Virus record (IMG/VR): IMGVR_UViG_2778261088_000004
Coordinates: 1 to 25,651 of that record
Direction: 5' to 3' (one strand)
DNA: 25,651 nt
Origin: a virus
Taxonomy: Duplodnaviria; Heunggongvirae; Uroviricota; Caudoviricetes
The notes under the pieces were generated by a model. The model did no database searches. It had not been told where the DNA came from and saw only the letters and a list, made by a program, of their open reading frames with translations. Positions within the stretch are counted from its first letter, which is position 1. Every line of letters begins with the position of its first letter. Below are positions 427 to 22,397 of this stretch, piece by piece. Made by a program: the position numbers and the translations under genes.

Positions 427-443
427 ATTGCTCTAATAATTCC
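427..443 (+). promoter_or_regulatory. C1 repressor operator-like site (ATTGCTCTAATAATTCC)
   Basis: Matches the asymmetric 17-bp P1 C1 operator consensus ATTGCTCTAATAAATTT as I recall it; one of about nine such sites in the window. Confidence 0.5.
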
Positions 444-451
444 ATATTTTT

Positions 452-479
452 AAAACGTGATGTACACTCATCACGTTTT
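452..479. terminator. Stem-loop (AAAACGTGATG / loop TACACT / CATCACGTTTT) with flanking A/T runs; possible bidirectional terminator
   Basis: Perfect 11-bp inverted repeat with 6-nt loop read directly; A-run on the 5' side and T-run on the 3' side. Confidence 0.4.
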
Positions 480-492
480 TTATTAGAGCAAT
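476..492 (-). promoter_or_regulatory. C1 operator-like site in inverted orientation (reverse complement ATTGCTCTAATAAAAAA)
   Basis: Reverse complement matches the C1 operator consensus; paired with the site at 427-443 across the hairpin. Confidence 0.5.
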
Positions 493-506
493 CTACAAGG
501 TGCACT

Positions 507-725
507 ATGTGGCCATTCCGACGGAAATATCACTACTGGCTGATCGCCTTTGTTACGCCGACCGGCGGTATCAGGCATGTCATCACCAGGTATCGCAACA
601 AGAGACTCACCTTAGCCAGAATTTTACAGGCTGCCATAGGTGAGGGACTGGATACAAATTGCGTAGTCCTTCCTCCTTCATACTTAGGAAAAATGACCGA
701 AGCACAAGCTAATACGGAACTTTGA
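507..725 (+). CDS. Hypothetical small protein (72 aa) directly upstream of the 420-aa gene
   Basis: ORF track; stops 1 nt before the ATG at 727; no motif recognised. Confidence 0.3.
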   Translation: MWPFRRKYHYWLIAFVTPTGGIRHVITRYRNKRLTLARILQAAIGEGLDTNCVVLPPSYLGKMTEAQANTEL

Positions 726-726
726 A

Positions 727-1989
727 ATGAGCACTTCAGCACAAAACCAATCAATCGAAAATGTATCTATCCCTGATGTCCTGAATGCCGGTATCCCGGC
801 CATTATCCAGAACATCCGGGCCGCGCAACGCCGCGTTAGTTGTGATGACCTCACAGCACGTTTTTTTGATAATGCGGTTCAGTCAGCGGAGATGCTTCAC
901 GCACAGCTTATTGATGTTTATAACGCAGAAGCTGATAGCCATAACTCCCTGGTAGATGCAGCTGAAAATATGCAGTTGGATCTCGGTCTGAAGGGTAAAG
1001 AAATTGAAGAGCTTCAGCTGCAAATTGAACATTTGAAACGCCAGCAACAGGACGCGATCGACGATGCGACGCATGACGCCAACCAGCGTGCTGATAATGC
1101 CGAACGTATAAGCATTGAGCTGGAAACAAAACTCAATGAAATGACCGCGATGGTTGAACTGCGGAACTCACAGATTTCAACGCTAAAATCTCAATATAAA
1201 GAGATCATGAAACTTGATCCTTTTAACCTTGAGAAACGCTATAACAAAGCTAAAAGCGAGCGACAGGAACTGCGTAAGCAGGTCGCCGACCTTAACCAAC
1301 AGCTCAAAAAAACTATTAAAGATGCAAGCGAAGCGCGCGTGGCATTTGCTAATAAAAAAGCAGAGGTTACCGCGCTGGTTAATGAGAATGCCAAATTTGC
1401 GACGCTCAAGAAGGAAATGTATGGCATTACTGAGCGCCGTTTCCCTGCAAGCAAACTTCATCCGACGTTAGGGCAAATCTCCTTCTTCCCGCGCCTCCTG
1501 GCTTATGGGATCTCATCGCCTAAAGAGTTCAATAACGAGCGTCCTTATATCGTTTCTAAGCTGGACTTTGCTTATCAGTTCTGCTGCGACATGGGCTATG
1601 CCATTGATATCCGGATCAACGAATGGTTGATGCCAAACTTCCAGCCGTTGGCCATTTTCCGCGAGTTCCAGCCGGAAGGTTGGGTAGAGTTCTTCCATGA
1701 ATTGATCTGTAAAGAGATGGAAAGCCGCCGCCCGGAACTGGTCCGTCGAGTTGAGTGGGCGCAAGAGGTTATGTTGGCAGAGGCAGAGCTGCCGTTCGAA
1801 CCGGAATTTATTGATGATCTGGCAGCTAAAGGGCTGCATACCCTGTTTGATGTGGTTACCCGCCGTCATGAGCAGTTGGTTGTCGAATTGGGTTTAGAGG
1901 AAACAGCGGCAAGAAGACTTCTCGATGTTTGCTATGCACGTAGCGATGCATGGGAAAAAGAGAACGGCGGCACTATTTACGTTCGCTGA
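727..1989 (+). CDS. Hypothetical protein (420 aa), coiled-coil N-terminal half and globular C-terminal half
   Basis: Long ORF; heptad-like E/K/Q/L-rich sequence from roughly residue 60 to 230; followed by a strong intrinsic terminator; C1 operator pair upstream. Confidence 0.7.
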   Translation: MSTSAQNQSIENVSIPDVLNAGIPAIIQNIRAAQRRVSCDDLTARFFDNAVQSAEMLHAQLIDVYNAEADSHNSLVDAAENMQLDLGLKGKEIEELQLQIEHLKRQQQDAIDDATHDANQRADNAERISIELETKLNEMTAMVELRNSQISTLKSQYKEIMKLDPFNLEKRYNKAKSERQELRKQVADLNQQLKKTIKDASEARVAFANKKAEVTALVNENAKFATLKKEMYGITERRFPASKLHPTLGQISFFPRLLAYGISSPKEFNNERPYIVSKLDFAYQFCCDMGYAIDIRINEWLMPNFQPLAIFREFQPEGWVEFFHELICKEMESRRPELVRRVEWAQEVMLAEAELPFEPEFIDDLAAKGLHTLFDVVTRRHEQLVVELGLEETAARRLLDVCYARSDAWEKENGGTIYVR

Positions 1990-2010
1990 CAGTTACAGTG
2001 TCACTTTTAA

Positions 2011-2042
2011 TGCTGGTGGAGTGCGCCCACCAGCATTTTTTT
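2011..2042 (+). terminator. Rho-independent terminator (TGCTGGTGG / loop AGTGCGC / CCACCAGCA + T7)
   Basis: 9-bp GC-rich stem with 7-nt loop followed by a run of 7 T, 22 nt after the stop of the 727-1989 gene. Confidence 0.7.
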
Positions 2043-2061
2043 CGTCCAATGAGGAGGGCAT

Positions 2062-2568
2062 TTGAGTATTTTCAATAAACACGCACACCAGGAACGTCCG
2101 TATATCGTCATAGTTGATATTGATGGAACAATATCAGAGGCAACTGAAGACAGACTGCATTTGCTTCCGCCACCAGGTAAAGGTGCATTAACAAAGGACT
2201 GGAACGAGTTTAATCTCGCCTGTGACACTGATACTCCCATAACTCCAGTTATTGATATTGTGCGCCAGTTATTTAACGTTTACACGGTCTGGTTTGTAAC
2301 CGGGCGCTGTGAGATCGCAAGGGATAAAACACGAGCCTGGCTGCGGAAGTACGTAACAAACGGGGCTGAGCCTTTGCTATCTATGCGTCCTGCCACCGAT
2401 GACAGAAATGACGGCCCAGCAAAGATTGATCTCCTTAAGAAAATTGGTCTAAGTAAAATCGCGTTCGCGCTGGAAGATAAGATTGAAGTGGCGCGTGTTT
2501 TCAGGAGGCACGGCGTGCTTACGTTAATGGTCAGGGAGTATGAAAACGCGCTTCTCCATCAACAATAA
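2062..2568 (+). CDS. HAD-superfamily phosphatase-like protein (168 aa)
   Basis: TTG start 4 nt after GAGGAGG; N-terminal VIVDIDGTI (HAD motif I, DxDG) and FVTGR (motif II); family assignment is by motif only. Confidence 0.55.
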   Translation: MSIFNKHAHQERPYIVIVDIDGTISEATEDRLHLLPPPGKGALTKDWNEFNLACDTDTPITPVIDIVRQLFNVYTVWFVTGRCEIARDKTRAWLRKYVTNGAEPLLSMRPATDDRNDGPAKIDLLKKIGLSKIAFALEDKIEVARVFRRHGVLTLMVREYENALLHQQ

Positions 2569-2584
2569 TTGCTCTAATAAATAT
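2568..2584 (+). promoter_or_regulatory. C1 operator (ATTGCTCTAATAAATAT)
   Basis: Near-perfect match to the C1 operator consensus, overlapping the stop codon of the HAD-like gene and upstream of the long operon starting at 2763. Confidence 0.6.
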
Positions 2585-2666
2585 TGATTTTTAAAACAGA
2601 GAAAGTGAAAATAAAAACATGCCGCAAGGCGCGGCATGTATCCAATCAATCACAGGAGCTGAAAAT

Positions 2667-2753
2667 ATGAACACGGCATTCAAAATCATTATGGCCGCGA
2701 TCTATTTCTGGCTGTTCTCTATCACTTTTGGCGGCATCGTCGCACATGGGTAA
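2667..2753 (+). CDS. Possible 28-aa hydrophobic peptide (MNTAFKIIMAAIYFWLFSITFGGIVAHG)
   Basis: ATG preceded by AGGAG; single predicted transmembrane helix; too short for the ORF track; unverified. Confidence 0.3.
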   Translation: MNTAFKIIMAAIYFWLFSITFGGIVAHG

Positions 2754-2762
2754 GGGGGATGC

Positions 2763-3368
2763 ATGAAAGGCGAAGTGAAAGAGCGCGGCATGATTTTTAA
2801 CGATGAGATGGTCCGGGCAATTCTTGGCGGGAATAAAACACAGACTCGCAGGATTGTTGAAGAAAAATTCTATGGACGGGCAGTGGCCGCAGAGTTGCTT
2901 GCCAAGCATTGTCCATATGGTCAACCGGGCGATCGTATTTGGGTTCGCGAAACCTACCGGGTACATGGCAAAGCGACGGACGTCGCAACGCTGGTTTATC
3001 GCGCAAGCGTGCGTAACTCCTGGACAGAACAAACGCACCGGGTTCCGGTCGAGGTTTGTAATAAACCAGTATCAGAAAAGTGGACGCCATCAATTCACAT
3101 GCCGCGCTGGGCATCGCGCATTCTTCTGGAAATTACCAACGTGCGCGTTGAGCGGTTGAACGATATCAGCGAATGCGATGCAAGGGATGAGGGCGTTCCG
3201 CCTGCTGGAAGTTTGCTTCCTGATCACCCGGGAACATTCCTTACTCCCAAGGGGGATTTCGCAATGGCCAAGGTTGCGTTCCAGCGCCTGTGGGAATCCA
3301 TCTACGGCGAAGAAAGCTGGAGTGCTAATCCCTGGGTTTGGGTAATCGAGTTTGAGCGTATTCAGTAG
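2763..3368 (+). CDS. ASCH-domain-like protein (201 aa)
   Basis: ATG after GGGGGA; N-terminal FNDEMVRAILGGNKTQTRR resembles the ASCH GxKxxxxR signature. Confidence 0.55.
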   Translation: MKGEVKERGMIFNDEMVRAILGGNKTQTRRIVEEKFYGRAVAAELLAKHCPYGQPGDRIWVRETYRVHGKATDVATLVYRASVRNSWTEQTHRVPVEVCNKPVSEKWTPSIHMPRWASRILLEITNVRVERLNDISECDARDEGVPPAGSLLPDHPGTFLTPKGDFAMAKVAFQRLWESIYGEESWSANPWVWVIEFERIQ

Positions 3369-3377
3369 GGCGAGCGT

Positions 3378-3599
3378 ATGCAATCAGTTATTTGTGAGGA
3401 AGTCGGCCTGAATAAAGCATCCCCAGCAGAGTTAAGAGCAAGTCTCGAAATGGCGCATAGCCTTGCTCAAATTGGTGTCAGGTTTGTACCAATTCCAGTT
3501 GAAACAGATGAAGAATTTCACAGGTTAGCGGCATCGGCAGCACAAAAGCTGGAAATCATGGCAGCGAAAGTAGAGAAAGCTGAAGGAGCGACAAAATGA
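3378..3599 (+). CDS. Hypothetical protein (73 aa)
   Basis: ORF track; its stop overlaps the next start (ATGA). Confidence 0.45.
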   Translation: MQSVICEEVGLNKASPAELRASLEMAHSLAQIGVRFVPIPVETDEEFHRLAASAAQKLEIMAAKVEKAEGATK

Positions 3600-3811
3600 G
3601 CAAGCCAACCGACGAAGAAATAGTTCGGGTGTTGGAAGAACACGGGCGCTGTATGACTTACGTCGTGACCAACTGGCTTAGGGATAAATATCGCACACTC
3701 AAAACGGCATACGTTTTGCGTCGTCTAAAGAAACTGGAGTTCGACGGGAAAGTAAAGCGCGTTAACAGTTCTTATATAAGACAAATTTGCTGGGAGGCAT
3801 CCAGTGAATAA
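3596..3811 (+). CDS. Hypothetical small protein (71 aa), possibly DNA-binding
   Basis: ATG overlaps the upstream stop; basic, helix-rich sequence; function is a guess. Confidence 0.45.
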   Translation: MSKPTDEEIVRVLEEHGRCMTYVVTNWLRDKYRTLKTAYVLRRLKKLEFDGKVKRVNSSYIRQICWEASSE

Positions 3812-4448
3812 CCGCTTTTACATGATGTGCTTGCGTGAAACTGTGGGTAATAACGCCTCATTCCATTGCCATAACGGCAATGGTTACAGTTCTGATATCG
3901 ATCGCGCTCATGTTTACACGCTGGAAGCAGCCCAAAAAGCCTGGAATTGTGGACGAGATATCGATCAGCCTGTTTGCGCTGATAGCGTGGATGCAATGGC
4001 TGTGTGGCACGTTGATTGCCAGTACATCCCTACAGAAAGCCTGATTGAGTCAGATTGCACTGCGTATGTGGCCTACAAAAAAGGTAGCTGGAACGGCAAC
4101 GATGTTTACTGGCTTCAACACGGTGGATTGCCAACAGATGACTTCAGTAAAGCGACCATCTTTAGCGTCGCCAACAAAAACGAACCAGGAATAGTTTGGT
4201 TGCCATTTTCCATTGCTGATGCAGCAAAGCGCCGGACGTTCAATATCAATAACTTTAACCGCAGAACAATGGTTCAGGGCGCAGGTTTGGTCATGCCTGA
4301 CTGGTTGAAAAAGCAAAACAGAAGAAAGAAGTCGCGAAGCGGGAAGGTGCGTTGGAATTGTCCGCATTGCGGAAAAATAACCTGGCAGTACAGCCCATAT
4401 GATTTTGAAGGCTGTAGTGATTACAACTGTGAAGGATGGCGAGAATGA
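3804..4448 (+). CDS. Hypothetical protein (214 aa) with C-terminal Cys-rich zinc-ribbon-like motif
   Basis: GTG start after GGGAGG, overlapping the upstream stop; C-terminus NCPHCGKITW...GCSDYNCEGW. Confidence 0.55.
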   Translation: MNNRFYMMCLRETVGNNASFHCHNGNGYSSDIDRAHVYTLEAAQKAWNCGRDIDQPVCADSVDAMAVWHVDCQYIPTESLIESDCTAYVAYKKGSWNGNDVYWLQHGGLPTDDFSKATIFSVANKNEPGIVWLPFSIADAAKRRTFNINNFNRRTMVQGAGLVMPDWLKKQNRRKKSRSGKVRWNCPHCGKITWQYSPYDFEGCSDYNCEGWRE

Positions 4449-5311
4449 CAATTGACTATCAGGTACTGCGTGAGGCGGCAGAAAAGGCAACACCAGACGA
4501 ATGGGTCGCATTTATTTCGACGGATACTGGTACTTATGCGGTGCACACGCCCGGTGATGAACGATGTGAAGACGTTATCAAATGGACCGGCTTTGATGGA
4601 CAGAAAAATGCAGAGAACAACGCTCGTTATGTTGCCGCGTTCAACCCAAAGGTTACACTGGAGCTGCTTGGTGAAATTAAGCGCCTGGAGGACACAAATA
4701 TTGATGCTATGTGTCGAATTGCAGAGCTTGAGACTAATCTCGCGGCGCTGGCAGCGGAGAATGCGGCGCTGAAGGCCGGGGCTATGTATTTCTCATATGG
4801 CTCTGAATTTAGTTTCGAGTGTCACAAAACTGCTGAGGAGGCTATCGCTGCTGCTGAGGCTGCAATTGACGACTATAGAGGCGATGCTTGCGATGGATGG
4901 AGCGAAGAGGTCGAAAGCATTTGCTGGGGGGTAATTATTCAGCAGGCAACCAAGGTCGGTGAACGCAAGAAGAGGAAATGCGACAGAGTATCACCATGGA
5001 TTGAAAGAGTTTGTGATTATGAGCTTCGACCTAATGTCGAAACCCCAGCCACCGATGCTTTCCTGTCTGAAATTCGTGCGGAAGCACGCAACGAGGGGAT
5101 TAACTATACCGCCAGCCGTCTTGCTGCTGCGTTCAATCACGGATTTATCAATAAGTCTTTGCGTGAAGTTTTCGACGTTACACGCATGATTTTGTCAGCG
5201 AAAGAAGAGTTGGCTAATGAAGCGCATCCGATTGATGGCCTGTCTGGTGAATATGCGGAGAAATCCCTTGAAGAATGGGCGGAACAGATTCGCAAAGGAA
5301 GCAGCCAGTGA
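4436..5311 (+). CDS. Phage Ead/Ea22-like protein (291 aa), paralog 1 of 3
   Basis: Shares NYQ/DYQ-x-LREAAE, RIAELE and PATDAFL-x-E-x-RA modules with the next two large ORFs; central coiled coil; family name from memory. Confidence 0.6.
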   Translation: MARMTIDYQVLREAAEKATPDEWVAFISTDTGTYAVHTPGDERCEDVIKWTGFDGQKNAENNARYVAAFNPKVTLELLGEIKRLEDTNIDAMCRIAELETNLAALAAENAALKAGAMYFSYGSEFSFECHKTAEEAIAAAEAAIDDYRGDACDGWSEEVESICWGVIIQQATKVGERKKRKCDRVSPWIERVCDYELRPNVETPATDAFLSEIRAEARNEGINYTASRLAAAFNHGFINKSLREVFDVTRMILSAKEELANEAHPIDGLSGEYAEKSLEEWAEQIRKGSSQ

Positions 5312-5598
5312 ATATCGACACGACAATAACGATCGATACGCTCCTAAATACCGGTCTGGCACTTCTCGGTTGGCTTTACATCATGTCCCGCACATGGCGA
5401 TGGCTGGGTTCCATTTTCCTAAAACAGTGGAAAAAACGGCGCAAACAGGAACTACGCCAGAAGGCATTAGAAGCGTTCTATGACGCATTTGAGCTTAGCC
5501 GCATTGAACCAGGTACAACAGCCAGGATAGCGACAAAAGGCGACCTGATGATAGTGATGTTCCGACAGGAGAGAGCAGAGAAAGGGGAATCAGCATGA
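5308..5598 (+). CDS. Small membrane protein (about 97 aa from GTG start)
   Basis: GTG at 5308 overlaps the upstream TGA (GTGA); hydrophobic segment LLNTGLALLGWLYIM; the track's ATG at 5275 would overlap the upstream gene by 37 nt. Confidence 0.45.
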   Translation: MNIDTTITIDTLLNTGLALLGWLYIMSRTWRWLGSIFLKQWKKRRKQELRQKALEAFYDAFELSRIEPGTTARIATKGDLMIVMFRQERAEKGESA

Positions 5599-6329
5599 AA
5601 TTTTCCAAATTTTCTGAGTTGGTGAATCGTATTTTGTCCAACAACCACAGCCATCGTCGCGATATGGATGTAACAATCGTTGTTCATTCGCCTGGCAGCA
5701 TTGGTTCAACACCTTCAGTTGAGGTTCAGTCAATTCACGCTGGTTTTGATTGGGATTCCGGGAAAGTGCTTATTTTCCCATCACAGCCACTGACCACGCT
5801 AACACCAGAACAGATTACTGATATCACTGATAGTGTGCGCAAAGGTCAGTCTTGGCACGCATATCAGGAATACAAGAAGCATCAAGAGCAGTTGGAAAAA
5901 TTGTCGATTGAACTGGATGCCGCAAAACAGCGCATTGCAGAGCTGGAGGGTAATCGCACGGCGCTGGCAGTGGAGAATGAGCTGGCTCGTAAGGCAGTTC
6001 AGGCATTCTGCGATGTTGTTGGCGACAACACCGAGGTTATCGCTGAGGTGGTTGGGCGAGATGGCGTTCTGGTTATTTTGGAGGCCATGAAGGCAACAGG
6101 AAATATGCCAGCCACCGATGCTTTCCTGGCTGAAGTGCGGGCGCAGGGCGTGGATGCTGCTATAGAAGCTGCAAAAAATCTGGTGGCCCAAGAATATGAG
6201 TATAAGGATTTCAAAGCGGCGCAGAGTGATTGCTGTATGCACCCTGGTTCAGACCTGGTAGGGAAGGTTGAAATGACTGAGTGGTTAGTTGACTTTGCTG
6301 CCCAGCTTCGCAAAGGAGGCAACCAGTGA
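5595..6329 (+). CDS. Phage Ead/Ea22-like protein (244 aa), paralog 2
   Basis: Contains PATDAFLAEVRA and RIAELE modules and the same C-terminal QLRKGGNQ tail type as paralog 1. Confidence 0.6.
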   Translation: MKFSKFSELVNRILSNNHSHRRDMDVTIVVHSPGSIGSTPSVEVQSIHAGFDWDSGKVLIFPSQPLTTLTPEQITDITDSVRKGQSWHAYQEYKKHQEQLEKLSIELDAAKQRIAELEGNRTALAVENELARKAVQAFCDVVGDNTEVIAEVVGRDGVLVILEAMKATGNMPATDAFLAEVRAQGVDAAIEAAKNLVAQEYEYKDFKAAQSDCCMHPGSDLVGKVEMTEWLVDFAAQLRKGGNQ

Positions 6330-6844
6330 GCGAAATTAATTACCAGGCACTGCGTGAGGCGGCGGAACGTGCAATTCCAGCAATGGAACGCCTGTTAATG
6401 TTGCCAGCTGATGATGACTTGTTAAGTGAACAGGAACTTAAAGATTACGGTGTGGATATTGATGCGCTCAACGCCTTCAAATTTCTGACCGGACCAGAAA
6501 CCGTGCTGGCACTGCTGGATGAACGGGAAAGAAACCTGCAATACATCAAAAGCCGCGACCAGGAGAACGAGGATATTGCGCTAACGGTAGGGAAGCTGCG
6601 CGTTGAGCTTGAAGCAGCAAAATCAAAACTCAACGAGCAGCGTGAATATTACGAGGGAGTAATCGCGGATGGAAGTAAGCGCATAGCAGAACTGGAGGAG
6701 CGGGAAATACTGCTCCCGGAACGTAGCAGCATGCTTCATCGAACAGATTTTCACGATGATTACCAAACGGTAATGGCATACAAAGTTTCTGAAGTCATCG
6801 CTGCAATCCGCGCCGCTGGCATTCGCATCAAAGGAGGTGAGTAA
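6326..6844 (+). CDS. Phage Ead/Ea22-like protein (172 aa), paralog 3
   Basis: GTG start overlapping the upstream stop (GTGA); N-terminal NYQALREAAERAIP matches paralog 1; RIAELEE module. Confidence 0.55.
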   Translation: MSEINYQALREAAERAIPAMERLLMLPADDDLLSEQELKDYGVDIDALNAFKFLTGPETVLALLDERERNLQYIKSRDQENEDIALTVGKLRVELEAAKSKLNEQREYYEGVIADGSKRIAELEEREILLPERSSMLHRTDFHDDYQTVMAYKVSEVIAAIRAAGIRIKGGE

Positions 6845-7016
6845 TGCGTGTGGCATGTATCGGCTTGTTACCGTACCCGACTCGTTTTTGGGCTTCTGCG
6901 CTAATTGCAAAGCCACATGTCCTGATGGCTGACAACATAATCCCGGCACCAAAGCGCCGCCATACCGGTATTGCAGCGGCACGACGAGCAGCAAAGAGAC
7001 GCAGGAGAGCAAAGCG

Positions 7017-7193
7017 ATGAAAAACCGTAAGGCAAAACGACTTTTTTTACAGCGACCTGTGCGTGTGGTGGAGCTGGTTATTAGCAACCATAAGATAGCG
7101 GTACTCCATCCATTTGGTCAGGTGGCTTTTGCCGCGAAGCGTAAGCCTACTGCGTCACAGAACAGGCGGAAGAAAGGGTACGCAGTAAGATGA
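7017..7193 (+). CDS. Small basic protein (58 aa, MKNRKAKRLFLQRP...)
   Basis: ATG after AGGAGAGC; not in the ORF track (under 60 aa); its TGA overlaps the ATG of the next small ORF, which starts with the same MKNRKAK. Confidence 0.35.
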   Translation: MKNRKAKRLFLQRPVRVVELVISNHKIAVLHPFGQVAFAAKRKPTASQNRRKKGYAVR

Positions 7194-7378
7194 AAAACCG
7201 TAAAGCAAAGATTCTGTTAGTTCGTAGAAACGCTCCTGGCGTCTGGCAGTGGGTGAGACTCAGCAACCGACGGATGGGGTTGATGAAATATTACGGGATG
7301 ATGGATTGTGGTTTTTGCAAAAAGCCCAGCGCGGCGCAAAACCGCTGGAAAAACCATTTGCGCACTAAAGGAGAGTGA
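7190..7378 (+). CDS. Small basic Cys-containing protein (62 aa, MKNRKAKILLVRR...)
   Basis: ORF track; N-terminus duplicated from the upstream small ORF. Confidence 0.4.
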   Translation: MKNRKAKILLVRRNAPGVWQWVRLSNRRMGLMKYYGMMDCGFCKKPSAAQNRWKNHLRTKGE

Positions 7379-7380
7379 TA

Positions 7381-7895
7381 TGGCGTTAACACACCGCGAA
7401 CTCTGTCAGATTGCGTACAAGTTCCTTAAGCGCAACGGGTTCAAGGTTTGTTTTCATGACCGCTTTATAGCTGTAACCAGTACCGGAGAACAGCCAGATG
7501 CTATGGGGTTCAGAAATTCAGCATCATGCCTGATAGAGGCGAAGTGTTCTCGTGCTGATTTGTTGGCAGATAGAAAAAAGCGTTTTCGTAAAAATCCGTC
7601 TCTTGGAATGGGCGACTGGCGATTCTTTATTAGTGAGCCGGGAATTATTTCAATTGAGGATTTACCACCTGGCTGGGGATTACTTCACGTTGTTAACGGA
7701 AGAGTACGGAAAGTACATGGGTGGCCCAAGGGTAATTGCTGTTGGGGTAACCCTGAAGATAAACCTTTTATTGGGAATAAGCAGGTTGAATGCGATTACA
7801 TGTTATCTGCATTAAGGCGCATGGAGTTGAGAGGGCACCTTAATGAAATATATGACGGTGTAATTGTTAATAAGAAAGAAGGAAACGCGGCATGA
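7381..7895 (+). CDS. Putative PD-(D/E)xK-fold nuclease (171 aa)
   Basis: ATG at 7381 after AAAGGAGAG (the track start at 7308 lacks a ribosome-binding site); motif GEQPDAMGF followed 14 residues later by CLIEAKCSR. Confidence 0.55.
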
Positions 7896-8749
7896 TCACT
7901 ATTACCAAAGAGCGACTGCTGACAATCAAGCAGTGGCGCGAAACATACGGACCTGATAGCAACGTTGTACTGCCAGCAGAAGAAGCGGAAGAACTGGCGC
8001 GTATCGTGCTGGCATCGCTGGAAGCAGAGCCTGTTCTGTATCAGTCCTGCACTCGCCCCACCTGGAATAGCGGTGTTCCGTGGACGGAATGGAAAGAACG
8101 TAGTCGTGAGTGCTACGAAGACGATTTGCGTTTTACAGACACGCCTGACCATGCTGGTTGGATATACAAATGTCGAAAACTATATACCACTCCGCCAGCG
8201 CCGATAGCGTTAGAGGCCATTGAAAACGCAATTGAATACATTCGTAGTATCGCTTTTCACATCGATGAAGACGATTACCACGGCAAACATATTGCGTATT
8301 TCATGCGACAAGCATTGGCCTGGCTGGAAGGGCATTCATGCAGCGACGACAGACTGGGTAAAGCCGACAATCAACCAGTACGCGGCAACCAGGCTGCCGA
8401 ATCCAATCGCGGTAATGAGTGGACCGGCAATCCTGATATTGATAACGCAATCATCATGCTCGACCGCATAGATACGGCGGAAAGTTACGATGATGACCGT
8501 ATTGAGGCTGTTAAGGCTGTTTTGCGTAGACTGGCAGGCAACTCTCCGGTAACTCCGGATGGTTGGATAAGCTGTAGTGAGCGAATGCCCCCTCAAGATG
8601 ATTGGATTTTAATTTATTCAAAGCACGGCGAGTATATGGCAGGACAGGTACAAGGGGAATACGTGGAGTTGAGCGACGGCACTTTATCGTGGTTAGGGAA
8701 CGCCTTGTTCTGGATGCCGTTACCAGAACCGCCGCAGGAGGCGAAATGA
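7892..8749 (+). CDS. Phage protein (285 aa) with C-terminal DUF551-like domain
   Basis: ATGA overlap with the upstream gene; C-terminal GW...LIYS...WLGNALFWMPLPEPP resembles the phage DUF551 domain from memory. Confidence 0.55.
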   Translation: MITITKERLLTIKQWRETYGPDSNVVLPAEEAEELARIVLASLEAEPVLYQSCTRPTWNSGVPWTEWKERSRECYEDDLRFTDTPDHAGWIYKCRKLYTTPPAPIALEAIENAIEYIRSIAFHIDEDDYHGKHIAYFMRQALAWLEGHSCSDDRLGKADNQPVRGNQAAESNRGNEWTGNPDIDNAIIMLDRIDTAESYDDDRIEAVKAVLRRLAGNSPVTPDGWISCSERMPPQDDWILIYSKHGEYMAGQVQGEYVELSDGTLSWLGNALFWMPLPEPPQEAK

Positions 8750-14255: not shown

Positions 14256-14259
14256 ATTA

Positions 14260-14466: not shown

Positions 14467-15510
14467 GTGAAAGCCGTAATTACTCCCTTTGTACAAAAAG
14501 AGCTTGGCGTCGCCACATTCAAAGTGGATCAGGAAGTCAGAAAGCTGGTGGAGGCTGGCCGTAAATTTATTATGGAGCCGGTGCCGCGTGAGTTAATCGA
14601 GCACATGGACGACGGCCTCGTTGTTTCCGAGCAAACTATGGCAACAAATGAGGCGTTGCAGCCGTTTTTTAACAGCGATGAACTGTTTCGCCGTATTGGT
14701 GGAATTGACGCGCTGGTGGCGTGGTTGCGCAGGAAAGAGGGGCAATGCCAGGCCGCAGATCGTAGCTGGTGTGACAACCATATTGTCCACGCAGAACGAG
14801 ACAATAGCGCGGTGTTGTTGTGCTGGCATCACGATAACCATTACCGGATGCGTGGTTTTAATGAGCTGAAAGAAACGCTGCATAATAATCGCGTTAACTG
14901 GATACTGGATGTCGCCCGTCAGGAAATGGGGCTTTCAGATGGCCATGATTTAAGTATTCAGGAACTGTGCTGGTGGGCTTTCATGCGCAACATGATGCAC
15001 CTGATGCCGGAAGAAGTTTGCCGTATATCAATAAATAAGATGAAAGCCGCAACGCAGGATAGCGGACCTCTGAAAGAGGCGGATATTCGCCCGTATGACG
15101 ATCGCGCTACAGCATATGTTCAGATGATGGAAGAACGCGCCGCGCCGATGCGTGCAAAAGTATGCCCTGTGGATGTTGACTCCGACCCTGGCATGGCGCA
15201 TTTCAAAATACCAAAACTGCAATCGCTAAAATTACCTGAGTACATGGACTTTGTTGCTTCCCGTCCATGCTGTGGGTGTGGAGCGGCGGGAGCTGGCGCT
15301 CACATTACGCCTTATATCGTTCGTCATAGTCGATTATGCGCGCATGACATTTACGCAATTCCTCTGTGCCAGTCATGCCAGCGTGATATTGAGCGTGACC
15401 GCGATAATTGGGAGAAGACGCACGGTAGGCTGGCGATGCATCAACGATTGTTCTTTGATTACGCGCTTGGAGTCGGCGCTATCACAAGTCACTCGTCGAG
15501 TGTTAGATAA
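14467..15510 (+). CDS. pdcB: PdcB-like protein (347 aa) with Cys/His-rich HNH-like segments
   Basis: GTG start after AAAGGTG; segments [25 protein letters not shown] and CCGCG...LCQSCQ; named from P1 gene order. Confidence 0.55.
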
Positions 15511-15511
15511 A

Positions 15512-15528
15512 ATTGCTCTAATGTATTG
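15512..15528 (+). promoter_or_regulatory. C1 operator (ATTGCTCTAATGTATTG) upstream of lpa
   Basis: Matches the C1 operator consensus; followed by a TATTAT -10-like hexamer; consistent with C1 control of lpa in P1. Confidence 0.55.
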
Positions 15529-15598
15529 CTATTTCTTTAATCGAGGGTATTATATTCCACGTTGATTAGTTGACATGGGCTAATCAGTAGGTGACAGG

Positions 15599-16051
15599 AT
15601 GTTACTTAACTGGCAGGGACGCCACTTCATGGAAATAAATCACTCACGAATAACATCGTACGAGATTGCGGATTACATGATCCGCACTAAATCTCTTCTA
15701 TCAGCGAAAGAACTCGCAGCAATTCTTGAAAAGGAATACCCGCATCTGGATGTCGATAAGCGCGATGTTTATCTGCGCTTAAAGGCTATCGCTGTGTCTA
15801 AGTATTCGTCTGTTTTGATTGATGACAGTACACGCCCACGTAGATTTCAGATCCACTCTCTGAATCCTGAATTCTTTCGCCGTAGCCGCGCTCCGCGCCG
15901 GTTTGATGAAAAACTCCAGAACGAACTCTATATGACGCAGGACGAAAAGGAACGCCGGGAGCACCAGCCTTGGGTAATGGCGCGTCAACTTTTCAATAAG
16001 GTGGCCCGTCAGCACCGTCATTACGGTAATGCCACATCCGCACGTATCTGA
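15599..16051 (+). CDS. lpa: Late promoter activator Lpa-like protein (150 aa)
   Basis: Position between pdcB and pacA, size, and the upstream C1 operator match P1 lpa; sequence itself not independently recalled. Confidence 0.55.
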   Translation: MLLNWQGRHFMEINHSRITSYEIADYMIRTKSLLSAKELAAILEKEYPHLDVDKRDVYLRLKAIAVSKYSSVLIDDSTRPRRFQIHSLNPEFFRRSRAPRRFDEKLQNELYMTQDEKERREHQPWVMARQLFNKVARQHRHYGNATSARI

Positions 16052-16136
16052 TTGATTGCTTGCCCGTTCCGGGCCTTTTGACATGTGACTTTCGTTACCC
16101 TCGCGTCAAAAAGAGTTTTTACGAAAGGAAGCATAA

Positions 16137-17330
16137 GTGACCTGGGACGATCACAAGAAGAATTTTGCTCGCCTGGCGCGAGATGGTGGTTACACCATCG
16201 CACAGTATGCCGCCGAGTTTAATCTTAACCCTAATACTGCACGTCGTTATCTCCGTGCCTTCAAAGAAGACACCAGGACAGCGGACAGCCGCAAGCCAAA
16301 TAAGCCAGTCAGGAAGCCACTAAAAAGCATGATCATTGATCACTCTAATGATCAACATGCAGGTGATCACATTGCGGCTGAAATAGCGGAAAAACAAAGG
16401 GTTAATGCCGTTGTCAGTGCCGCAGTCGAGAATGCGAAGCGCCAAAATAAGCGCATAAATGATCGTTCTGATGATCATGACGTGATCACCCGCGCCCACC
16501 GGACCTTACGTGATCGCCTGGAACGCGACACCCTGGATGATGATGGTGAACGCTTTGAATTCGAAGCTGGCGATTACCTGATAGATAACGTTGAAGCGCG
16601 GAAGGCCGCGCGCGCTATGTTGCGTCGGTCCGGGGCCGATGTTCTGGAAACCACTCTTCTGGAAAAGTCTCTTTCTCATCTCCTTATGCTGGAGAACGCC
16701 AGGGATACGTGTATTCGTCTGGTGCAGGAAATGCGCGATCAGCAAAAAGACGATGATGAAGGGACTCCGCCTGAATATCGTATCGCGAGCATGCTAAACA
16801 GCTGTTCCGCGCAGATAAGCAGCCTGATCAACACCATTTACAGCATCCGGAATAACTATCGAAAAGAAAGCCGGGAGGCGGAAAAGCACGCTTTATCTAT
16901 GGGGCAAGCTGGCATTGTTAAGCTGGCATACGAACGAAAGCGTGAAAATAACTGGTCAGTGCTGGAAGCAGCTGAATTCATCGAGGCGCATGGCGGGAAA
17001 GTGCCGCCCCTGATGCTGGAGCAAATCAAAGCCGATCTGCGTGCTCCTAAGACAAATACCGATGATGAGGAAAGGCAAACTGCCGTCGGTGGCCCTTCTC
17101 TTGAAGATCTGGACAAAGTTGCGCGAGAACGGGCCGCCAACCGCCGCGCCGATGCCGCATTGTGGATTGAGCAGCGTAGGGAAGAAATCGCCGATATCGT
17201 TGATACAGGCGGTTATGGAGATGTTGATACTGAAGGTGTATCAAACGACCCATGGCTGGAACAAGACCTGGACGAAGACGAGGAGGAAGACGAAGAAGTT
17301 ACCCGCAAGCTATACGGGGATGATGATTAA
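16137..17330 (+). CDS. pacA: Terminase small subunit PacA (397 aa)
   Basis: GTG start after AAAGGAAG; N-terminus [28 protein letters not shown] recognised; contains the pac hexanucleotide cluster; acidic C-terminal tail. Confidence 0.85.
16331..16487. other. P1 pac packaging site: seven GATC-containing hexanucleotide elements (4 + 3) flanking the cleavage region
   Basis: GATC at 16331, 16338, 16350, 16365 and at 16461, 16473, 16484, within TGATCA/TGATCG-type hexamers inside the pacA 5' region. Confidence 0.8.
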
Positions 17331-18814
17331 TGGCCAGAAGTTGCGTAACGGATCCACGTTGGCGCGAGCTGGTGGCGCTATATCGTTATGACTGGATTGC
17401 GGCCGCTGATGTTTTGTTCGGCAAAACACCTACCTGGCAGCAGGATCTGATTATTGAGTCTGTGCAGGAACAGGGTAGCAAGACATCTGTTTCGTCTGGT
17501 CACGGTACCGGGAAATCAGACATGACTTCTATCATGATCATGTTGTTCATAATCATGTATCCCGGTGCCCGAGCCATTATCGTTGCGAACAAAATTCAGC
17601 AGGTAATGACCGGTATATTCAAGTACATCAAGATAAACTGGGCTACTGCCACCAGCCGTTTTCCATGGCTTGCTGATTATTTTGTTCTGACAGAAACCGC
17701 TTTCTATGAGGTTACTGGTAAAGGTGTATGGACTGTAGTACCGAAGGGCTTTCGTCTGGGAAGTGAAGAAGCTCTCGCCGGTGAACACGCAGATCATCTT
17801 CTGTATATTATCGATGAAGCCTCCGGTGTCAGTGATAGAGCTTTCGGTATCATCACCGGTGCTCTTACCGGACAGGATAACCGCATCTTATTGCTGTCAC
17901 AGCCTACACGCCCAAGCGGCTATTTCTACGATACTCACCATAAACTGGCCAAGCGTCCTGGTAACCCTGATGGCGTTTATACGGCGATCACGCTTAACAG
18001 TGAGGAATCACCGCTGGTAACGCCAGCATTTATCAAAATGAAGCTGGCGGAGTACGGCGGGCGTGATAACCCTATGTACATGATTAAGGTACGCGGACTA
18101 TTCCCTAAATCACAGGATGGCTTCCTTCTTGGACGTGATGAGGTTGAACGTGCGACGCGGCGGAAAGTCAAGATTGCCAAAGGATGGGGCTGGCTTGCAT
18201 GTGTGGACGTTGCTGGTGGTACGGGACGGGATAAGTCCGTTATCAATATCATGATGGTGTCCGGCCAGAGAAATAAACGCCGTGTAATCAACTATCGAAT
18301 GCTGGAATACACAGACGTTACAGAAACGCAGCTTGCCGCCAAAATTTTCGCAGAATGTAATCCTGAGCGATTCCCAAATATCACCATAGCGATAGACGGC
18401 GATGGGCTGGGTAAAGCAACGGCGGATCTGATGTACGAGTATTATGGTATTACCGTACAGCGTATACGCTGGGGTAAAAAGATGCATAGCCGTGAAGATA
18501 AGAGCCTGTACTTTGATAAGCGTGCTTATGCCAACGTTCAAGCCGCAGAGGCCGTAAAATCAGGTCGTATGAGACTGGATAAGGGTAATGAAACTATTGA
18601 GGAAGCGTCGAAAATCCCTGTAGGGATTAACTCCGCAGGTCAATGGAAGGTGATGAGTAAGGAGGATATGAAGAAAAAACTCAACCTGCACTCACCAGAC
18701 CATTGGGATACATATTGTTTCGCTATGCTGGCGGATTATGTTCCCCAGGATGAAGTGCTTAGCGTCGAAGACGAAGCGCAGGTAGATGAAGCTCTGGCAT
18801 GGCTTAATGAATAA
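17330..18814 (+). CDS. pacB: Terminase large subunit PacB (494 aa)
   Basis: ATG overlaps the pacA stop; Walker-A-like GHGTGKS near the N-terminus; size and position as in P1. Confidence 0.8.
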
Positions 18815-18838
18815 CTCATTGACCATGCCGGATGGAAA

Positions 18839-19690
18839 CTATTGCGCGCTTTCGGGGTTGTCGTTTACTGGCTGCCCCTTCTTAGTTTTACGGCTGCGCG
18901 TAACTGATGCGGCTGATTTGACCTTTTTCTCTTCGCGAGTGATGGCAATTTGTTTTTTTACATTTTCAATATCTGCCAGGCGATATATTTTTGCCTGCGG
19001 CCAGCGGTCGCAGATGATCGGTTCTATAGAGTCATAAAGGCTAAATTTTGCTTTCTCGAATTCACCGTTGATGATAATTCCATCACGGAGAGTTTCATCG
19101 CAGATAAACACACCACATAGCGGCACATGGTAACTAACTGATTTACCATCATTGTAGTTAGGGCTACTAGAAATGTAATGGACGCGCAGCATTGTTTCGC
19201 TAAAGCCGTGTACGCGCATACGGAATTTTTCATCCTCCGGGTACTGCTTCATTAGCTCTTTTGTTGCTTCCAGGTTCTCTATGTATTTCGCACTGTGCTC
19301 ATTGATCCCTGCGCTTTTCTGGATGCGAATGTCCTTATCAATCAGATGAATAATGCGGCCAGCGGTCATGTTGACGCTGTTCACAGCTTCTGTCTGATAA
19401 GTCGTAACCTTACGCACACCGCGAAGGATGTTAGGCACTGGATATAAAATAGTCTTTGGGATATTGAGGTCTGGGTACTGTTCCAGTTCCCGCGCCATTA
19501 AAGTCCATTTATCAATTTCAGCCTGAATGCTGTCCGTTTCTTTGAACGGCAGAACGACAACCGGGCGAACAGGACGACCGTCGCTGGCGGCATCAACGTG
19601 TTGGGCGCGTGCAACAGCTTTTTTTAGAAAGAGATCCCTGAAGCTGACGAACTCCTGGTACAGTTGTTCGCCGTAGACATAATTTATCAT
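18839..19690 (-). CDS. c1: C1 repressor of lysis (283 aa)
   Basis: 283-aa ORF convergent with pacB and followed by coi and the Op99 operator cluster, the P1 immC arrangement; C1 operator sites occur throughout the window. Confidence 0.8.
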   Translation of the reverse strand: MINYVYGEQLYQEFVSFRDLFLKKAVARAQHVDAASDGRPVRPVVVLPFKETDSIQAEIDKWTLMARELEQYPDLNIPKTILYPVPNILRGVRKVTTYQTEAVNSVNMTAGRIIHLIDKDIRIQKSAGINEHSAKYIENLEATKELMKQYPEDEKFRMRVHGFSETMLRVHYISSSPNYNDGKSVSYHVPLCGVFICDETLRDGIIINGEFEKAKFSLYDSIEPIICDRWPQAKIYRLADIENVKKQIAITREEKKVKSAASVTRSRKTKKGQPVNDNPESAQ

Positions 19691-19800
19691 TGATCCTCCT
19701 CCAGAATTGACATGGCCAACAACTCACAGCGGATTACACTGGGAGTTGTTGGCCACCATTATAGAAGGATCCAACGAAAATAATAGATTTATTAGTGCAT

Positions 19801-20010
19801 TTATTGTGAGTCTGGCTGGTTAGTGGCCATGAGATATTCGATTGTGTCAGTGAGATCATCCAGGTCGTCTTGGGTGATGCGGTACTCCTGATTGGATATC
19901 TTTGAGTAGTGTTCAGCAATGGCGCGGGCAGCGTCGGTTTCGGCGGGGTCTACAGATAAAGCGTTAGAGCAATGTCTAACGTCGTCGATGGTTGGTGGAA
20001 TGAAAGCCAT
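19801..20010 (-). CDS. coi: Coi, C1 inactivator (69 aa)
   Basis: 69-aa ORF immediately upstream of c1 on the same strand, downstream of Op99-type operators; matches P1 coi in size and position. Confidence 0.7.
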   Translation of the reverse strand: MAFIPPTIDDVRHCSNALSVDPAETDAARAIAEHYSKISNQEYRITQDDLDDLTDTIEYLMATNQPDSQ

Positions 20011-20248
20011 AATTATGCCTCACTGTATTGACAACACAGAGCCTGAAGCTCTGACCTACTGTTTCACCCATGATCCATGCTGGGGTAATCTAACAACATT
20101 GCGCTGTGTGTAAGATGAGCAATGCATAGCTGTAATGCCGTTGTATAAGGTTTCCCTGTTTGCTCATTTCCTTCTGAGCCGCTCTACAACGCTGAAGACA
20201 CATTAAATAGTGAATCCAAAGTCGTATTACGAAACGGCGGCAAAACTA

Positions 20249-20265
20249 TAATTTATTAGAGCAAT
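20249..20265 (-). promoter_or_regulatory. C1 operator (Op99-type), inverted orientation
   Basis: TAATTTATTAGAGCAAT is the reverse complement of ATTGCTCTAATAAATTA. Confidence 0.6.
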
Positions 20266-20331
20266 TGTCAAACAACAATGAAAAACAATCCAGTTTTTGG
20301 CTGGTGGAGTGGGATTTTTCTCTCAAAATTT

Positions 20332-20348
20332 ATTGCTCTAATAATTCT
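20332..20348 (+). promoter_or_regulatory. C1 operator (Op99-type) ATTGCTCTAATAATTCT
   Basis: Consensus match, 44 bp before loxP. Confidence 0.6.
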
Positions 20349-20391
20349 TGATTTTTATGCACAGCTGGACGTAAACTCCTCTTCGGACCTA

Positions 20392-20425
20392 ATAACTTCG
20401 TATAGCATACATTATACGAAGTTAT
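20392..20425 (+). other. loxP site (ATAACTTCGTATA-GCATACAT-TATACGAAGTTAT)
   Basis: Exact 34-bp loxP: two 13-bp inverted arms around the 8-bp asymmetric spacer. Confidence 0.97.
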
Positions 20426-20843
20426 CTTAGGGGTTATTGAACATGATCAATTTACCTGTAAATCCATACAGTTCAATACCTTATCAGGTCAAATAGTGAT
20501 CACTTGATCATTTGATCAAGGTTGCGCTACGTAAAATCTGCGAAATGTTGGCGGTGTTAGTCCTACAGATTTCGCGTAGCGCACTTAGCACCACCAATCA
20601 ATCAGAGGTGAAAAATGGGATATTCAGCTGCTAAAGTGTCCACTCATCTTGAGCTTGAGAAAAACCGTGGTTACTGGCGGGCAAAAGGGTTTGAGCGTGA
20701 TAGTTACCAACTGTCATTATCTCGCGGTGAAGAGAAAATAGAACGCACGCGCGGTCGCTGGCGTTCCTATGACGAGAACCATAAACAGGTAAAGGCAGAG
20801 CCGATCCTGTACACTTTACTTAAAACCATTATCTGAGTGTTAA

Positions 20844-21875
20844 ATGTCCAATTTACTGACCGTACACCAAAATTTGCCTGCATTACCGGTCGATGCAACG
20901 AGTGATGAGGTTCGCAAGAATCTGATGGACATGTTCAGGGATCGCCAGGCGTTTTCTGAGCATACCTGGAAAATGCTTCTGTCCGTTTGCCGGTCGTGGG
21001 CGGCATGGTGCAAGTTGAATAACCGGAAATGGTTTCCCGCAGAACCTGAAGATGTTCGCGATTATCTTCTATATCTTCAGGCGCGCGGTCTGGCAGTAAA
21101 AACTATCCAGCAACATTTGGGCCAGCTAAACATGCTTCATCGTCGGTCCGGGCTGCCACGACCAAGTGACAGTAATGCTGTTTCACTGGTCATGCGACGG
21201 ATCCGAAAAGAAAACGTTGATGCCGGTGAACGTGCAAAACAGGCACTGGCGTTCGAACGCACTGATTTCGACCAGGTTCGTTCACTCATGGAAAATAGCG
21301 ATCGCTGCCAGGATATACGTAATCTGGCATTTCTGGGGATTGCTTATAACACCCTGTTACGTATAGCCGAAATTGCCAGGATCAGGGTTAAAGATATCTC
21401 ACGTACTGACGGTGGGAGAATGTTAATCCATATTGGCAGAACGAAAACGCTGGTTAGCACCGCAGGTGTAGAGAAGGCACTTAGCCTGGGGGTAACTAAA
21501 CTGGTCGAGCGATGGATTTCTGTCTCTGGTGTGGCTGATGATCCGAATAACTACTTGTTTTGCCGTGTCAGAAAAAATGGTGTTGCCGCGCCATCTGCCA
21601 CCAGCCAGCTATCAACTCGCGCCCTGGAAGGGATTTTTGAAGCAACTCATCGATTGATTTACGGCGCTAAGGATGACTCTGGTCAGAGATACCTGGCCTG
21701 GTCTGGACACAGTGCCCGTGTCGGAGCCGCGCGAGATATGGCCCGCGCCGGAGTTTCAATACCGGAGATCATGCAAGCTGGTGGCTGGACCAACGTAAAT
21801 ATTGTCATGAACTATATCCGTAACCTGGATAGTGAAACGGGGGCAATGGTACGCCTGCTGGAAGATGGCGATTAG
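20844..21875 (+). CDS. cre: Cre site-specific tyrosine recombinase (343 aa)
   Basis: Translation MSNLLTVHQNLPALPVDATSDEVRKNLMDMFRDRQAFSEHTWKMLLSVCRSWAAWCKLNNRKWFPAEPEDVRDYLLYLQARGLAVKTIQQHLGQLNMLHRRSGLPRPSDSNAVSLVMRRIRKENVDAGERAKQALAFERTDFDQVRSLMENSDRCQDIRNLAFLGIAYNTLLRIAEIARIRVKDISRTDGGRMLIHIGRTKTLVSTAGVEKALSLGVTKLVERWISVSGVADDPNNYLFCRVRKNGVAAPSATSQLSTRALEGIFEATHRLIYGAKDDSGQRYLAWSGHSARVGAARDMARAGVSIPEIMQAGGWTNVNIVMNYIRNLDSETGAMVRLLEDGD matches Cre as I know it; loxP lies 420 bp upstream. Confidence 0.97.
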   Translation: MSNLLTVHQNLPALPVDATSDEVRKNLMDMFRDRQAFSEHTWKMLLSVCRSWAAWCKLNNRKWFPAEPEDVRDYLLYLQARGLAVKTIQQHLGQLNMLHRRSGLPRPSDSNAVSLVMRRIRKENVDAGERAKQALAFERTDFDQVRSLMENSDRCQDIRNLAFLGIAYNTLLRIAEIARIRVKDISRTDGGRMLIHIGRTKTLVSTAGVEKALSLGVTKLVERWISVSGVADDPNNYLFCRVRKNGVAAPSATSQLSTRALEGIFEATHRLIYGAKDDSGQRYLAWSGHSARVGAARDMARAGVSIPEIMQAGGWTNVNIVMNYIRNLDSETGAMVRLLEDGD

Positions 21876-21892
21876 CCGTTCATTTGCGCTTG

Positions 21893-21909
21893 ATTGCTCT
21901 AATTATTTG
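21893..21909 (+). promoter_or_regulatory. C1 operator-like site (ATTGCTCTAATTATTTG) between cre and cra
   Basis: Consensus match. Confidence 0.5.
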
Positions 21910-21925
21910 ATATTTATGGTGACGC

Positions 21926-22237
21926 ATGCGGAAGGATTTCAAAATAGACGGAAAATATGTGGTGCTGTCTGTAAGCTCTCAAATTCAGTCACCATCTGTC
22001 ATTGTCACCGTAAAATTGAGCGATAGGATGCCTGATATCGACTCGATATCTGTTGCGTTCCCCGTTAAAAGCATGCGGAGCGCTGAACATTTTGTGATGA
22101 ATGCAACGGAGGAGGAAGCGCGGCGCGGGCTTACTAGAGTGATGGCGGAATTTGGCGAACTCCTGGGTAAGGTAAACAATGCCCTTTCAATCAGTTCAGC
22201 AAGATCCAAAGCGTTAACAGCTTCCATGATGAAATAA
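21926..22237 (+). CDS. cra: Cra-like (cre-associated) protein, 103 aa
   Basis: ORF directly after cre and before ref, as in P1; named by position. Confidence 0.55.
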   Translation: MRKDFKIDGKYVVLSVSSQIQSPSVIVTVKLSDRMPDIDSISVAFPVKSMRSAEHFVMNATEEEARRGLTRVMAEFGELLGKVNNALSISSARSKALTASMMK

Positions 22238-22367
22238 AAAAGCCTGGCAAGGAGCCAGGCTGCACAAAAGAGCGGGTTTGTATTCCGCATCCAATCAATC
22301 AAGAAGGAGTATAGCACACAGGTACTGAAGTGAAAAAATGTGATTCGCGATAAACAAAATATCTACC

Positions 22368-22397
22368 ATTGCTCTAATTGATTGCTATAATTGAGCC
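22368..22397 (+). promoter_or_regulatory. Two overlapping C1 operators (ATTGCTCTAATTGATTG and ATTGCTATAATTGAGCC) with embedded TATAAT -10
   Basis: Tandem consensus matches; perfect TATAAT at 22386-22391; consistent with C1-repressed ref expression. Confidence 0.55.

Follow-up and report, generated by a model that had tools for sequence, protein, structure and literature searches.

The stretch of DNA analysed here (IMG/VR record IMGVR_UViG_2778261088_000004, 25,651 nucleotides, hereafter the window) is identified from its sequence as a segment of a P1-like (Punavirus) phage-plasmid, and the 17-bp sites dispersed along it are very probably operators of C1, the primary immunity repressor of this element. 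This assignment relies on the orthology of the sites to P1 operators, on a near-identical repressor, on enrichment over chance and on conserved positions and orientations. The 17-bp sites that C1 recognises in P1 are asymmetric, and their 5′ core, ATTGCTCTAAT, hardly varies. They lie on or beside sigma-70 promoters and, with few exceptions, read in the same direction as the controlled gene.

By megablast, the window was 95.7-98% identical in nucleotide sequence to P1, P7, SJ46 and RCS47, and many P1-like plasmids of E. coli also matched it, with a coverage of up to 90%. The gene content comprises pmgR/S, pap, the Op88 operon, lpa, pacAB, c1-coi, lox-cre, c8, ref and a truncated mat. Collinear blocks, operators and promoters were referred to the P1 record GenBank AF234172 (Table 1, which also gives the former operator names). 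The cognate repressor gene, c1, is present on the same element as the operators. Because its product is identical to P1 C1.100 at 282 of 283 residues, its DNA specificity should equal that of P1 C1. Coi, Lpa, Cre and PmgR show 100% protein identity to their P1 counterparts.

The operator consensus and a total of 22 operators in P1 have been reported previously (PMC8546580). We used the asymmetric 17-bp consensus ATTGCTCTAATAAATTT, with the near-invariant core (A/T)TTGC(T/A)CTAAT. Nine matches with at most three mismatches were found in the window, as compared to 0.11 expected from shuffled sequences. The exact 11-mer core ATTGCTCTAAT occurred eight times (427+, 476-, 2568+, 15512+, 20249-, 20332+, 21893+ and 22368+), with 0 expected from the shuffles. 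To avoid circularity, all 20 monovalent operators were extracted from the P1 record and a weight matrix was built from only the 9 that lie outside the region homologous to the window. With this independent matrix, ten sites scored 13.7-26.7 bits (427+, 476-, 2568+, 15512+, 19785-, 20249-, 20332+, 21893+, 22368+ and 23034+), and shuffled sequences yielded 0.69 sites at 12 bits or more. Weak matches at 2443-2459, 12085-12101, 25269-25285 and 25474-25490 (9-13 bits) fell in the chance range and were rejected. The C at position 7 of the operator (C7) is constant in all 19 monovalent P1 operators.

Ten strong sites are orthologous to operators annotated as C1-binding in AF234172, from which they differ by one base at most; the weak site Oc1b comes in addition. 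Eight sites share the exact core, and Oc1a, Omat and Oc1c match the consensus as their P1 orthologues do. As compared to P1, the positions relative to the genes, the repressor and the promoter overlaps are the same. P7, SJ46, RCS47, JL22 and phiW39 also have the C1 immunity region and the operator set in common with the window. The operator map is mostly known P1 biology, to which a probable operator before c8, the sole element absent from the curated P1 and P7 annotation, is a modest addition.

Nine C1-operator-like sites had been listed by eye in an earlier, sequence-only reading of the window. The sequences at its coordinates are as it described them. Eight of its nine sites carry the exact core and are among the ten retained by the matrix scan with known P1 operators, a check which that reading had itself proposed; the ninth, at 22381-22397, is not an operator. 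Seven of the listed sites are orthologous to annotated P1 operators (Op86a, Op86b, Op88, Op94, Op99d, Op99e and Op2a). The eighth, 21893-21909, holds as an operator-like site, and c8, the target that had been left out, begins 16 nt downstream. The placement of pmgR-pmgS, the operon behind 2568, lpa, coi-c1 and ref under C1 agrees with the P1 annotation (OpmgRa/b, OpmgT, Olpa, Oc1d and Oref). Of the two sites that had been assigned to a cluster before coi/c1, 20249-20265 (Oc1d) does belong there, and 20332-20348 (Oc1e) faces cra/cre and P4cre instead. The map was also incomplete: Oc1a/b (19774-19801), Oc1c and Omat had been missed, so that c1 autoregulation and mat were absent from it.

For the geometry of the sites, the P1 promoter annotation was carried over to window coordinates. 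The operators overlap or adjoin the -35, spacer or -10 elements of the transferred promoters, and 10 of the 11 strong sites run in the same direction as the gene that follows. The TTGCTC of the operator doubles as the -35 of PpmgR (predicted, at 428-433 within OpmgRa) and of P2pmgT. OpmgRb faces OpmgRa and lies directly 5′ of the pmgR start. OpmgT overlaps the -35 boxes of two predicted promoters, P2pmgT (2569-2574) and P1pmgT (2584-2589). Olpa overlaps the -35 (TTGCTA, 15526-15531) of Plpa, a promoter independently recovered by a sigma-70 promoter scan, with lpa (15599-16051) downstream. Oc1d occupies the 17-bp spacer of P1coi, from the -35 TTGACA (20266-20271) to the -10, and would control imcA/B, coi and c1, while Oc1e, directly beside the P4cre -35, points towards lox, cra and cre. 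Omat shares bases with the ref stop codon and precedes both Pmat (-35 at 23072-23077) and LPmat (23084-23102); the P1 record puts it on the minus strand, yet its operator sequence is that of the plus strand.

Conservation was sampled in 80 PmgS-anchored and 80 Cre-anchored IMG/VR contigs. OpmgRa and OpmgRb were each found in 80/80 PmgS-anchored contigs and Op88 in about 75 of the 80, all at a fixed offset. Oc1a, Oc1c, Oc1d, Oc1e, Oref and Omat were conserved in the Cre-anchored contigs, Oc1c being invariant wherever it was covered.

Some further signals were observed beside these operators. The terminator-like hairpin between OpmgRa and OpmgRb folds at -15 kcal/mol (z = -5.8), and its U-run coincides with the A-rich 3′ end of OpmgRb. 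Transcripts entering from the ppp-pmgQ operon upstream could be stopped by this hairpin, and those of PpmgR, which start inside the stem, would escape it. A leftward promoter-like match (TTGTCA, 16 nt, AATAAT; 10/12; 23051-23078, minus strand) adjoins Omat and is antisense to the 3′ end of ref; C1 at Omat could control this match as well. Finally, a LexA box at 20454-20473 overlaps P2coi and is conserved beside lox, so that an SOS input to Coi expression, hence to C1 inactivation, would be kept in the element.

The site before c8 was then considered in the light of its variants. The gene is thought to have a role, itself putative, in lysogeny establishment, and no separate promoter was identified for it at the site. 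The site scored 20.8 bits with the independent matrix and 23.1 bits with a matrix of all operators. The P1 and P7 records have no operator annotated at this position. Both phages read ATTGCTATAATTATTTG there, with the core ATTGCTATAAT, in which C7 is changed to A. This change would explain the absence of the c8 site from the classical operator lists; it also creates a perfect consensus extended -10, TGCTATAAT. The 80 contigs retrieved with Cre provided an unbiased sample of the variants: 71 carry ATTGCTCTAAT, 6 carry ATTGCTATAAT, in two different flanking haplotypes, and 3 carry ATTGCTCTGAT. The C type was also found in SJ46, phiW39 and two Escherichia genome contigs. The 15 nt from the cre stop codon to the site are hypervariable; conservation sets in at the site and continues into the downstream leader. 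A tblastn search of a phage collection identified a c8 homologue of 51% identity in Cronobacter phage JK004, preceded at 21 nt by ATTGCTCTAATAATTTA (25 bits) within unrelated intergenic flanks. A search for C8 in genome contigs returned three loci only, and no distant relatives. In a literature search whose coverage did not extend to Lobocka et al. 2004, no paper linked 'C1 operator' to P1-like phage-plasmids or c8.

Taken together, the core, the matrix score, the predominance of the C type (71/80) and, above all, the JK004 site in unrelated flanks indicate that 21893-21909 is probably a genuine operator placing c8 under C1 control. A broader proposal is that this additional operator makes c8 C1-repressed in most natural P1-like phage-plasmids, and that the C-to-A change of P1 and P7 abolishes it while creating the TGCTATAAT extended -10; to us the case for this proposal is evenly balanced. 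In more general terms, C1 operator cores and extended -10 promoters would stand one mutation apart, the P2ref -10 beside Oref being another example. On the other hand, 21893-21909 might be a conserved promoter or 5′-leader element of c8 that resembles an operator, with c8 outside C1 regulation. Indeed, conservation reaches the c8 ATG, P1 and P7 function with ATTGCTATAAT, a consensus extended -10, and neither curated record annotates an operator there. Such an element would nevertheless have to carry, by resemblance, an exact 11-nt operator core that has no chance expectation in the window, a score of 20.8-23.1 bits and the same orientation rule as the other operators. Moreover, the A that is critical at position 2 of a -10 hexamer is missing from TCTAAT, so that the C variant would make a poor promoter, and a strong site stands at the same position before the divergent JK004 c8. 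We therefore regard the leader explanation as tentative and rather improbable.

Behind OpmgT, the 20 co-directional open reading frames (ORFs) of the Op88 operon are joined by junctions of -8 to +23 nt when the best start codons are used. The operon is 6.9 kb longer than in P1. The extra DNA encodes DUF1382, two Ead/Ea22, DUF4752 and DUF551 proteins, as well as several proteins without a family match. Pfam families scoring above the gathering threshold were PF13935 (twice, 69 and 127 bits), PF15944 (143), PF07131 (100) and PF04448 (41.5); of the 16 operon ORFs examined, 9 had no Pfam family. In patches, the extra DNA shares 90-96% identity with Stx-converting and other lambdoid phages in their early-left regions, and lambda ea22 is among the matches. 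Judged by these homologies, it is a mosaic of lambdoid early-left genes. A sigma-70 and terminator scan detected no strong plus-strand terminator and no promoter match of at least 10/12 inside the operon. The operon holds no Lpa-type late promoter either, the only ones in the whole window being LPpac (16083) and LPmat (23084). Given the compact operon, the lack of a late promoter and the position of the lambdoid homologues in a CI-repressed early-left region, the most economical reading is that the accessory genes behind Op88 are early, repressor-gated functions, presumably carried by a single transcript from Op88 to 11000.

The parallel with lambda extends to the arrangement, homologues of the accessory genes lying there downstream of a prophage-repressor-controlled promoter (CI/pL early-left, ea22). 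However, lambda CI is unrelated to C1: CI dimers act on clustered symmetric operators, whereas C1 acts on single asymmetric sites scattered over the genome. Unlike in lambda, no N-antitermination system is evident in the window.

The cargo behind Op88 differs in each P1-like element. Among 20 contigs in which both boundaries were located, the distance from Op88 to pmgV took 17 different values, from 1.6 to 8.8 kb. In P1-like phage-plasmids, the pmgT-humD interval is known to be hypervariable (PMC9603915), and pmgT, pmgU and pmgV are dispensable in P1 (PMC10695390). A slot of variable length filled with dispensable genes would also suit lysogenic-conversion cargo, expressed in part in the lysogen from internal or read-through promoters, which would leave only a portion of the 8.4 kb under Op88. 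Weak promoter-like matches are present, for example at 10073-10100. This possibility is unlikely, however, with 20 ORFs so closely coupled in one direction, with neither a promoter match of the above quality nor a strong terminator among them, and with lambdoid homologues located in the early-left region, e.g. within lambda ea22.

The same operon was compared with P1 region 84488-85557. The first 232 residues of P1 PmgT match the first operon gene of the window (2763-3368), and its last 77 residues read out of frame into the penultimate gene, which encodes 224 residues (9967-10641). P1 PmgU corresponds to the C-terminal 111 residues of this penultimate gene product (94% identity). From these matches, P1 PmgT appears to be a deletion fusion, and the reference P1 to carry a 6.9-kb deletion scar in the Op88 operon. 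Between Op88 and the first long ORF lies a stable hairpin (2617-2639, -18 kcal/mol), which resembles a terminator on the minus strand alone. Next comes a hydrophobic ORF of 28 codons (2667-2753, MNTAFKIIMAAIYFWLFSITFGGIVAHG) with a good ribosome-binding site, in a region annotated as a small membrane protein in SJ46 and not in P1.

Upstream of ref, the sequence-only reading had proposed two tandem overlapping operators, 22368-22384 and 22381-22397. The gene starts at ATG 22483, behind a hairpin, and not at TTG 22378. The first of the two sites is Oref. The second, ATTGCTATAATTGAGCC, resembles the start of an operator, since ATTGCT is repeated 13 nt downstream; its first 11 nt (22381-22391, ATTGCTATAAT) differ from the operator core only at C7. 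As an operator it was rejected, with 6 of 17 positions mismatched, including C7, the 3′ half absent and a score of about 7 bits. It coincides with the extended -10 of P2ref, TGCTATAAT at 22383-22391, in agreement with the -10 placement in the P1 record. Oref fills the P2ref spacer up to the TG of this extended -10, which it overlaps. In addition, the bivalent operators of P1 (Op72ab and Op99ab) are overlapping inverted pairs, whereas the 22368 and 22381 stretches are direct repeats; the real bivalent pair of the window is at 19774-19801. Oref is annotated as monovalent in the P1 and P7 records. A pair of operators guarding ref is thus most improbable: the resemblance is real, and 22381-22397 is a promoter -10 element, not a second operator.

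A published study reports that induction of ref accompanies that of other genes under C1, and that one of the ref promoters is occluded by a C1 site (PMC4713147). A probable attenuator of ref is the GC-rich hairpin with its U8 tail, which separates the ATG of the gene from its promoters; attenuator-antiterminator control of ref is named in the title of a 1988 paper by Windle, Laufer and Hays, cited in PMC4713147.

Several observations weigh against the assignment of these genes to C1. The P1 record gives the Op86 and Op88 promoters as predictions only; they have weak hexamers (TTGCTC with TAAAAC) and went undetected in the consensus promoter scan. This sigma-70 scan showed no enrichment (10 matches versus 18.7 expected in the left half of the window, 17 versus 16.0 in the right half). 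As it misses weak promoters such as those of Op86 and Op88, it can neither confirm these nor exclude internal promoters, for which it is too insensitive in the 8.4-kb operon. At c8, the whole 5′ leader of about 45 nt is conserved, beyond the operator core, so that conservation alone is no proof of C1 binding and does not separate an operator from a 5′ untranslated region function. As for the idea of AT-rich, promoter-like sequences whose conservation has nothing to do with a repressor, the core does hold a -35-like TTGCTC and a -10-like TCTAAT, but ten sites orthologous to P1-annotated C1-binding operators, a cognate repressor gene inside the window and an extreme enrichment leave it almost no likelihood.

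We infer that C1 occupies its operators in this element. In P1, it is established that the bound repressor excludes RNA polymerase or obstructs its passage, and early lytic and immunity functions are thereby kept off in the plasmid prophage until Coi or Ant inactivates C1. In the window, control would be exerted on pmgR-pmgS via Op86a/b, on the 20-gene accessory operon via Op88, on lpa, the late-gene activator gene, via Op94, on c1 itself and coi via Op99a-d, on cra/cre via Op99e, on ref via Op2a and on mat via Op2b. Repression of c8 by C1 would most likely be exerted via the unannotated 21893 site.

The window departs from P1 at other places than c8 and the Op88 operon. Instead of hot, which codes for a homologue of the theta subunit of DNA polymerase III, and of the -10 of its late promoter, unrelated DNA carries an ORF for 118 residues (12076-12432, minus strand). 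The right end (23544-25651) is an antibiotic-resistance insertion with strA-strB and an IS10-type end, whose RNA-OUT was the sole match of an Rfam search. This insertion cuts mat after about 140 codons. Since mat is listed as essential in P1 (PMC10695390), the element may be defective for lytic growth. Outside the window, P1 itself has an unannotated operator-like sequence, ATTGCCCTAATGTATTT (16.6 bits), at AF234172 17166-17182, in the darB/prt divergent promoter region.

Table 1. Features of the window, with the corresponding positions in P1 (AF234172)
Feature	Window position	Strand	Remarks
Collinear block	78-2854		P1 81803-84579; end of pmgQ, pmgR, pmgS, pap, Op88, start of pmgT
OpmgRa (former Op86a)	427-443	+	ATTGCTCTAATAATTCC; identical to P1 82152-82168, annotated C1 operator
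Terminator-like hairpin and U-run	452-487	+	Between Op86a and Op86b, 3′ of pmgQ stop codon
OpmgRb (former Op86b)	476-492	-	ATTGCTCTAATAAAAAA; identical to P1 82201-82217
pmgR	507-725	+	100% protein identity to P1 PmgR; Op86a/b-controlled unit
pmgS	727-1989	+	99.3% protein identity to P1 PmgS; Op86a/b-controlled unit
Terminator of pmgR-pmgS unit	2009-2037
OpmgT (former Op88)	2568-2584	+	ATTGCTCTAATAAATAT; orthologue of P1 84293-84309, one base different, in the 3′ part
Op88 operon	2667-11000	+	20 co-directional ORFs; last gene pmgV
Non-aligning piece	2855-3086		No alignment to P1
Collinear block	3087-3338		P1 84932-85183; second block inside pmgT
Extra DNA	3338-10266		Without counterpart in P1
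Collinear block	10266-11621		P1 85182-86535
Replacement	11621-12450		In place of hot
Collinear block	12450-20408		P1 86842-94800; lxr, humD, phd-doc, pdcAB, lpa, pacAB, c1, coi, left half of lox
Olpa (former Op94)	15512-15528	+	ATTGCTCTAATGTATTG; identical to P1 89904-89920
c1	18839-19690	-	Repressor gene; product 282/283 residues identical to P1 C1.100
Oc1ab (former Op99a/b)	19774-19801		Bivalent, over Pc1; identical to P1 94166-94193
Oc1b (Op99b)	19774-19790	+	Weak partner of Oc1a
Oc1a (Op99a)	19785-19801	-	3 mismatches to consensus
Oc1c (former Op99c)	19957-19973	-	ATTGCTCTAACGCTTTA; inside coi; 5 mismatches; identical to P1 94349-94365
Oc1d (former Op99d)	20249-20265	-	Identical to P1 94641-94657
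Oc1e (former Op99e)	20332-20348	+	Identical to P1 94724-94740
Collinear block	20409-23544		P1 1-3139; right half of lox, cra, cre, c8, ref, start of mat
Operator-like site	21893-21909	+	ATTGCTCTAATTATTTG; 16 nt 5′ of c8 ATG (21926)
c8	21926-22237	+	91% protein identity to P1 C8; likely target of 21893 site
Oref (former Op2a)	22368-22384	+	ATTGCTCTAATTGATTG; identical to P1 1962-1978
GC-rich hairpin and U8	22452-22469	+	Between ref promoters and ref ATG (22483)
Omat (former Op2b)	23034-23050	+	TATGCACTAATAAATAT; 21.6 bits; 4 mismatches; orthologue of P1 2628-2644, one base different (position 1)
aph(6)-Id/strB	23650-24495	-	Within right-end insertion
aph(3'')-Ib/strA	24486-25289	-	Within right-end insertion
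IS10/ISVsa5-type end with RNA-OUT	25513-25582	-	Within right-end insertion

The data indicate that the C1 immunity circuit of P1 has very probably been carried over unchanged to a wild, resistance-carrying P1-like plasmid. The map shows which variable plasmid genes sit behind a repressor-controlled promoter. Op88 would be a fixed, repressor-gated entry point behind which P1-like elements swap blocks of lambdoid early genes. The conserved operator-like site before c8 suggests that the natural C1 regulon includes this gene, though P1 and P7 are without the site. If this is true, the regulation of c8 in the two reference phages would be atypical of the family.

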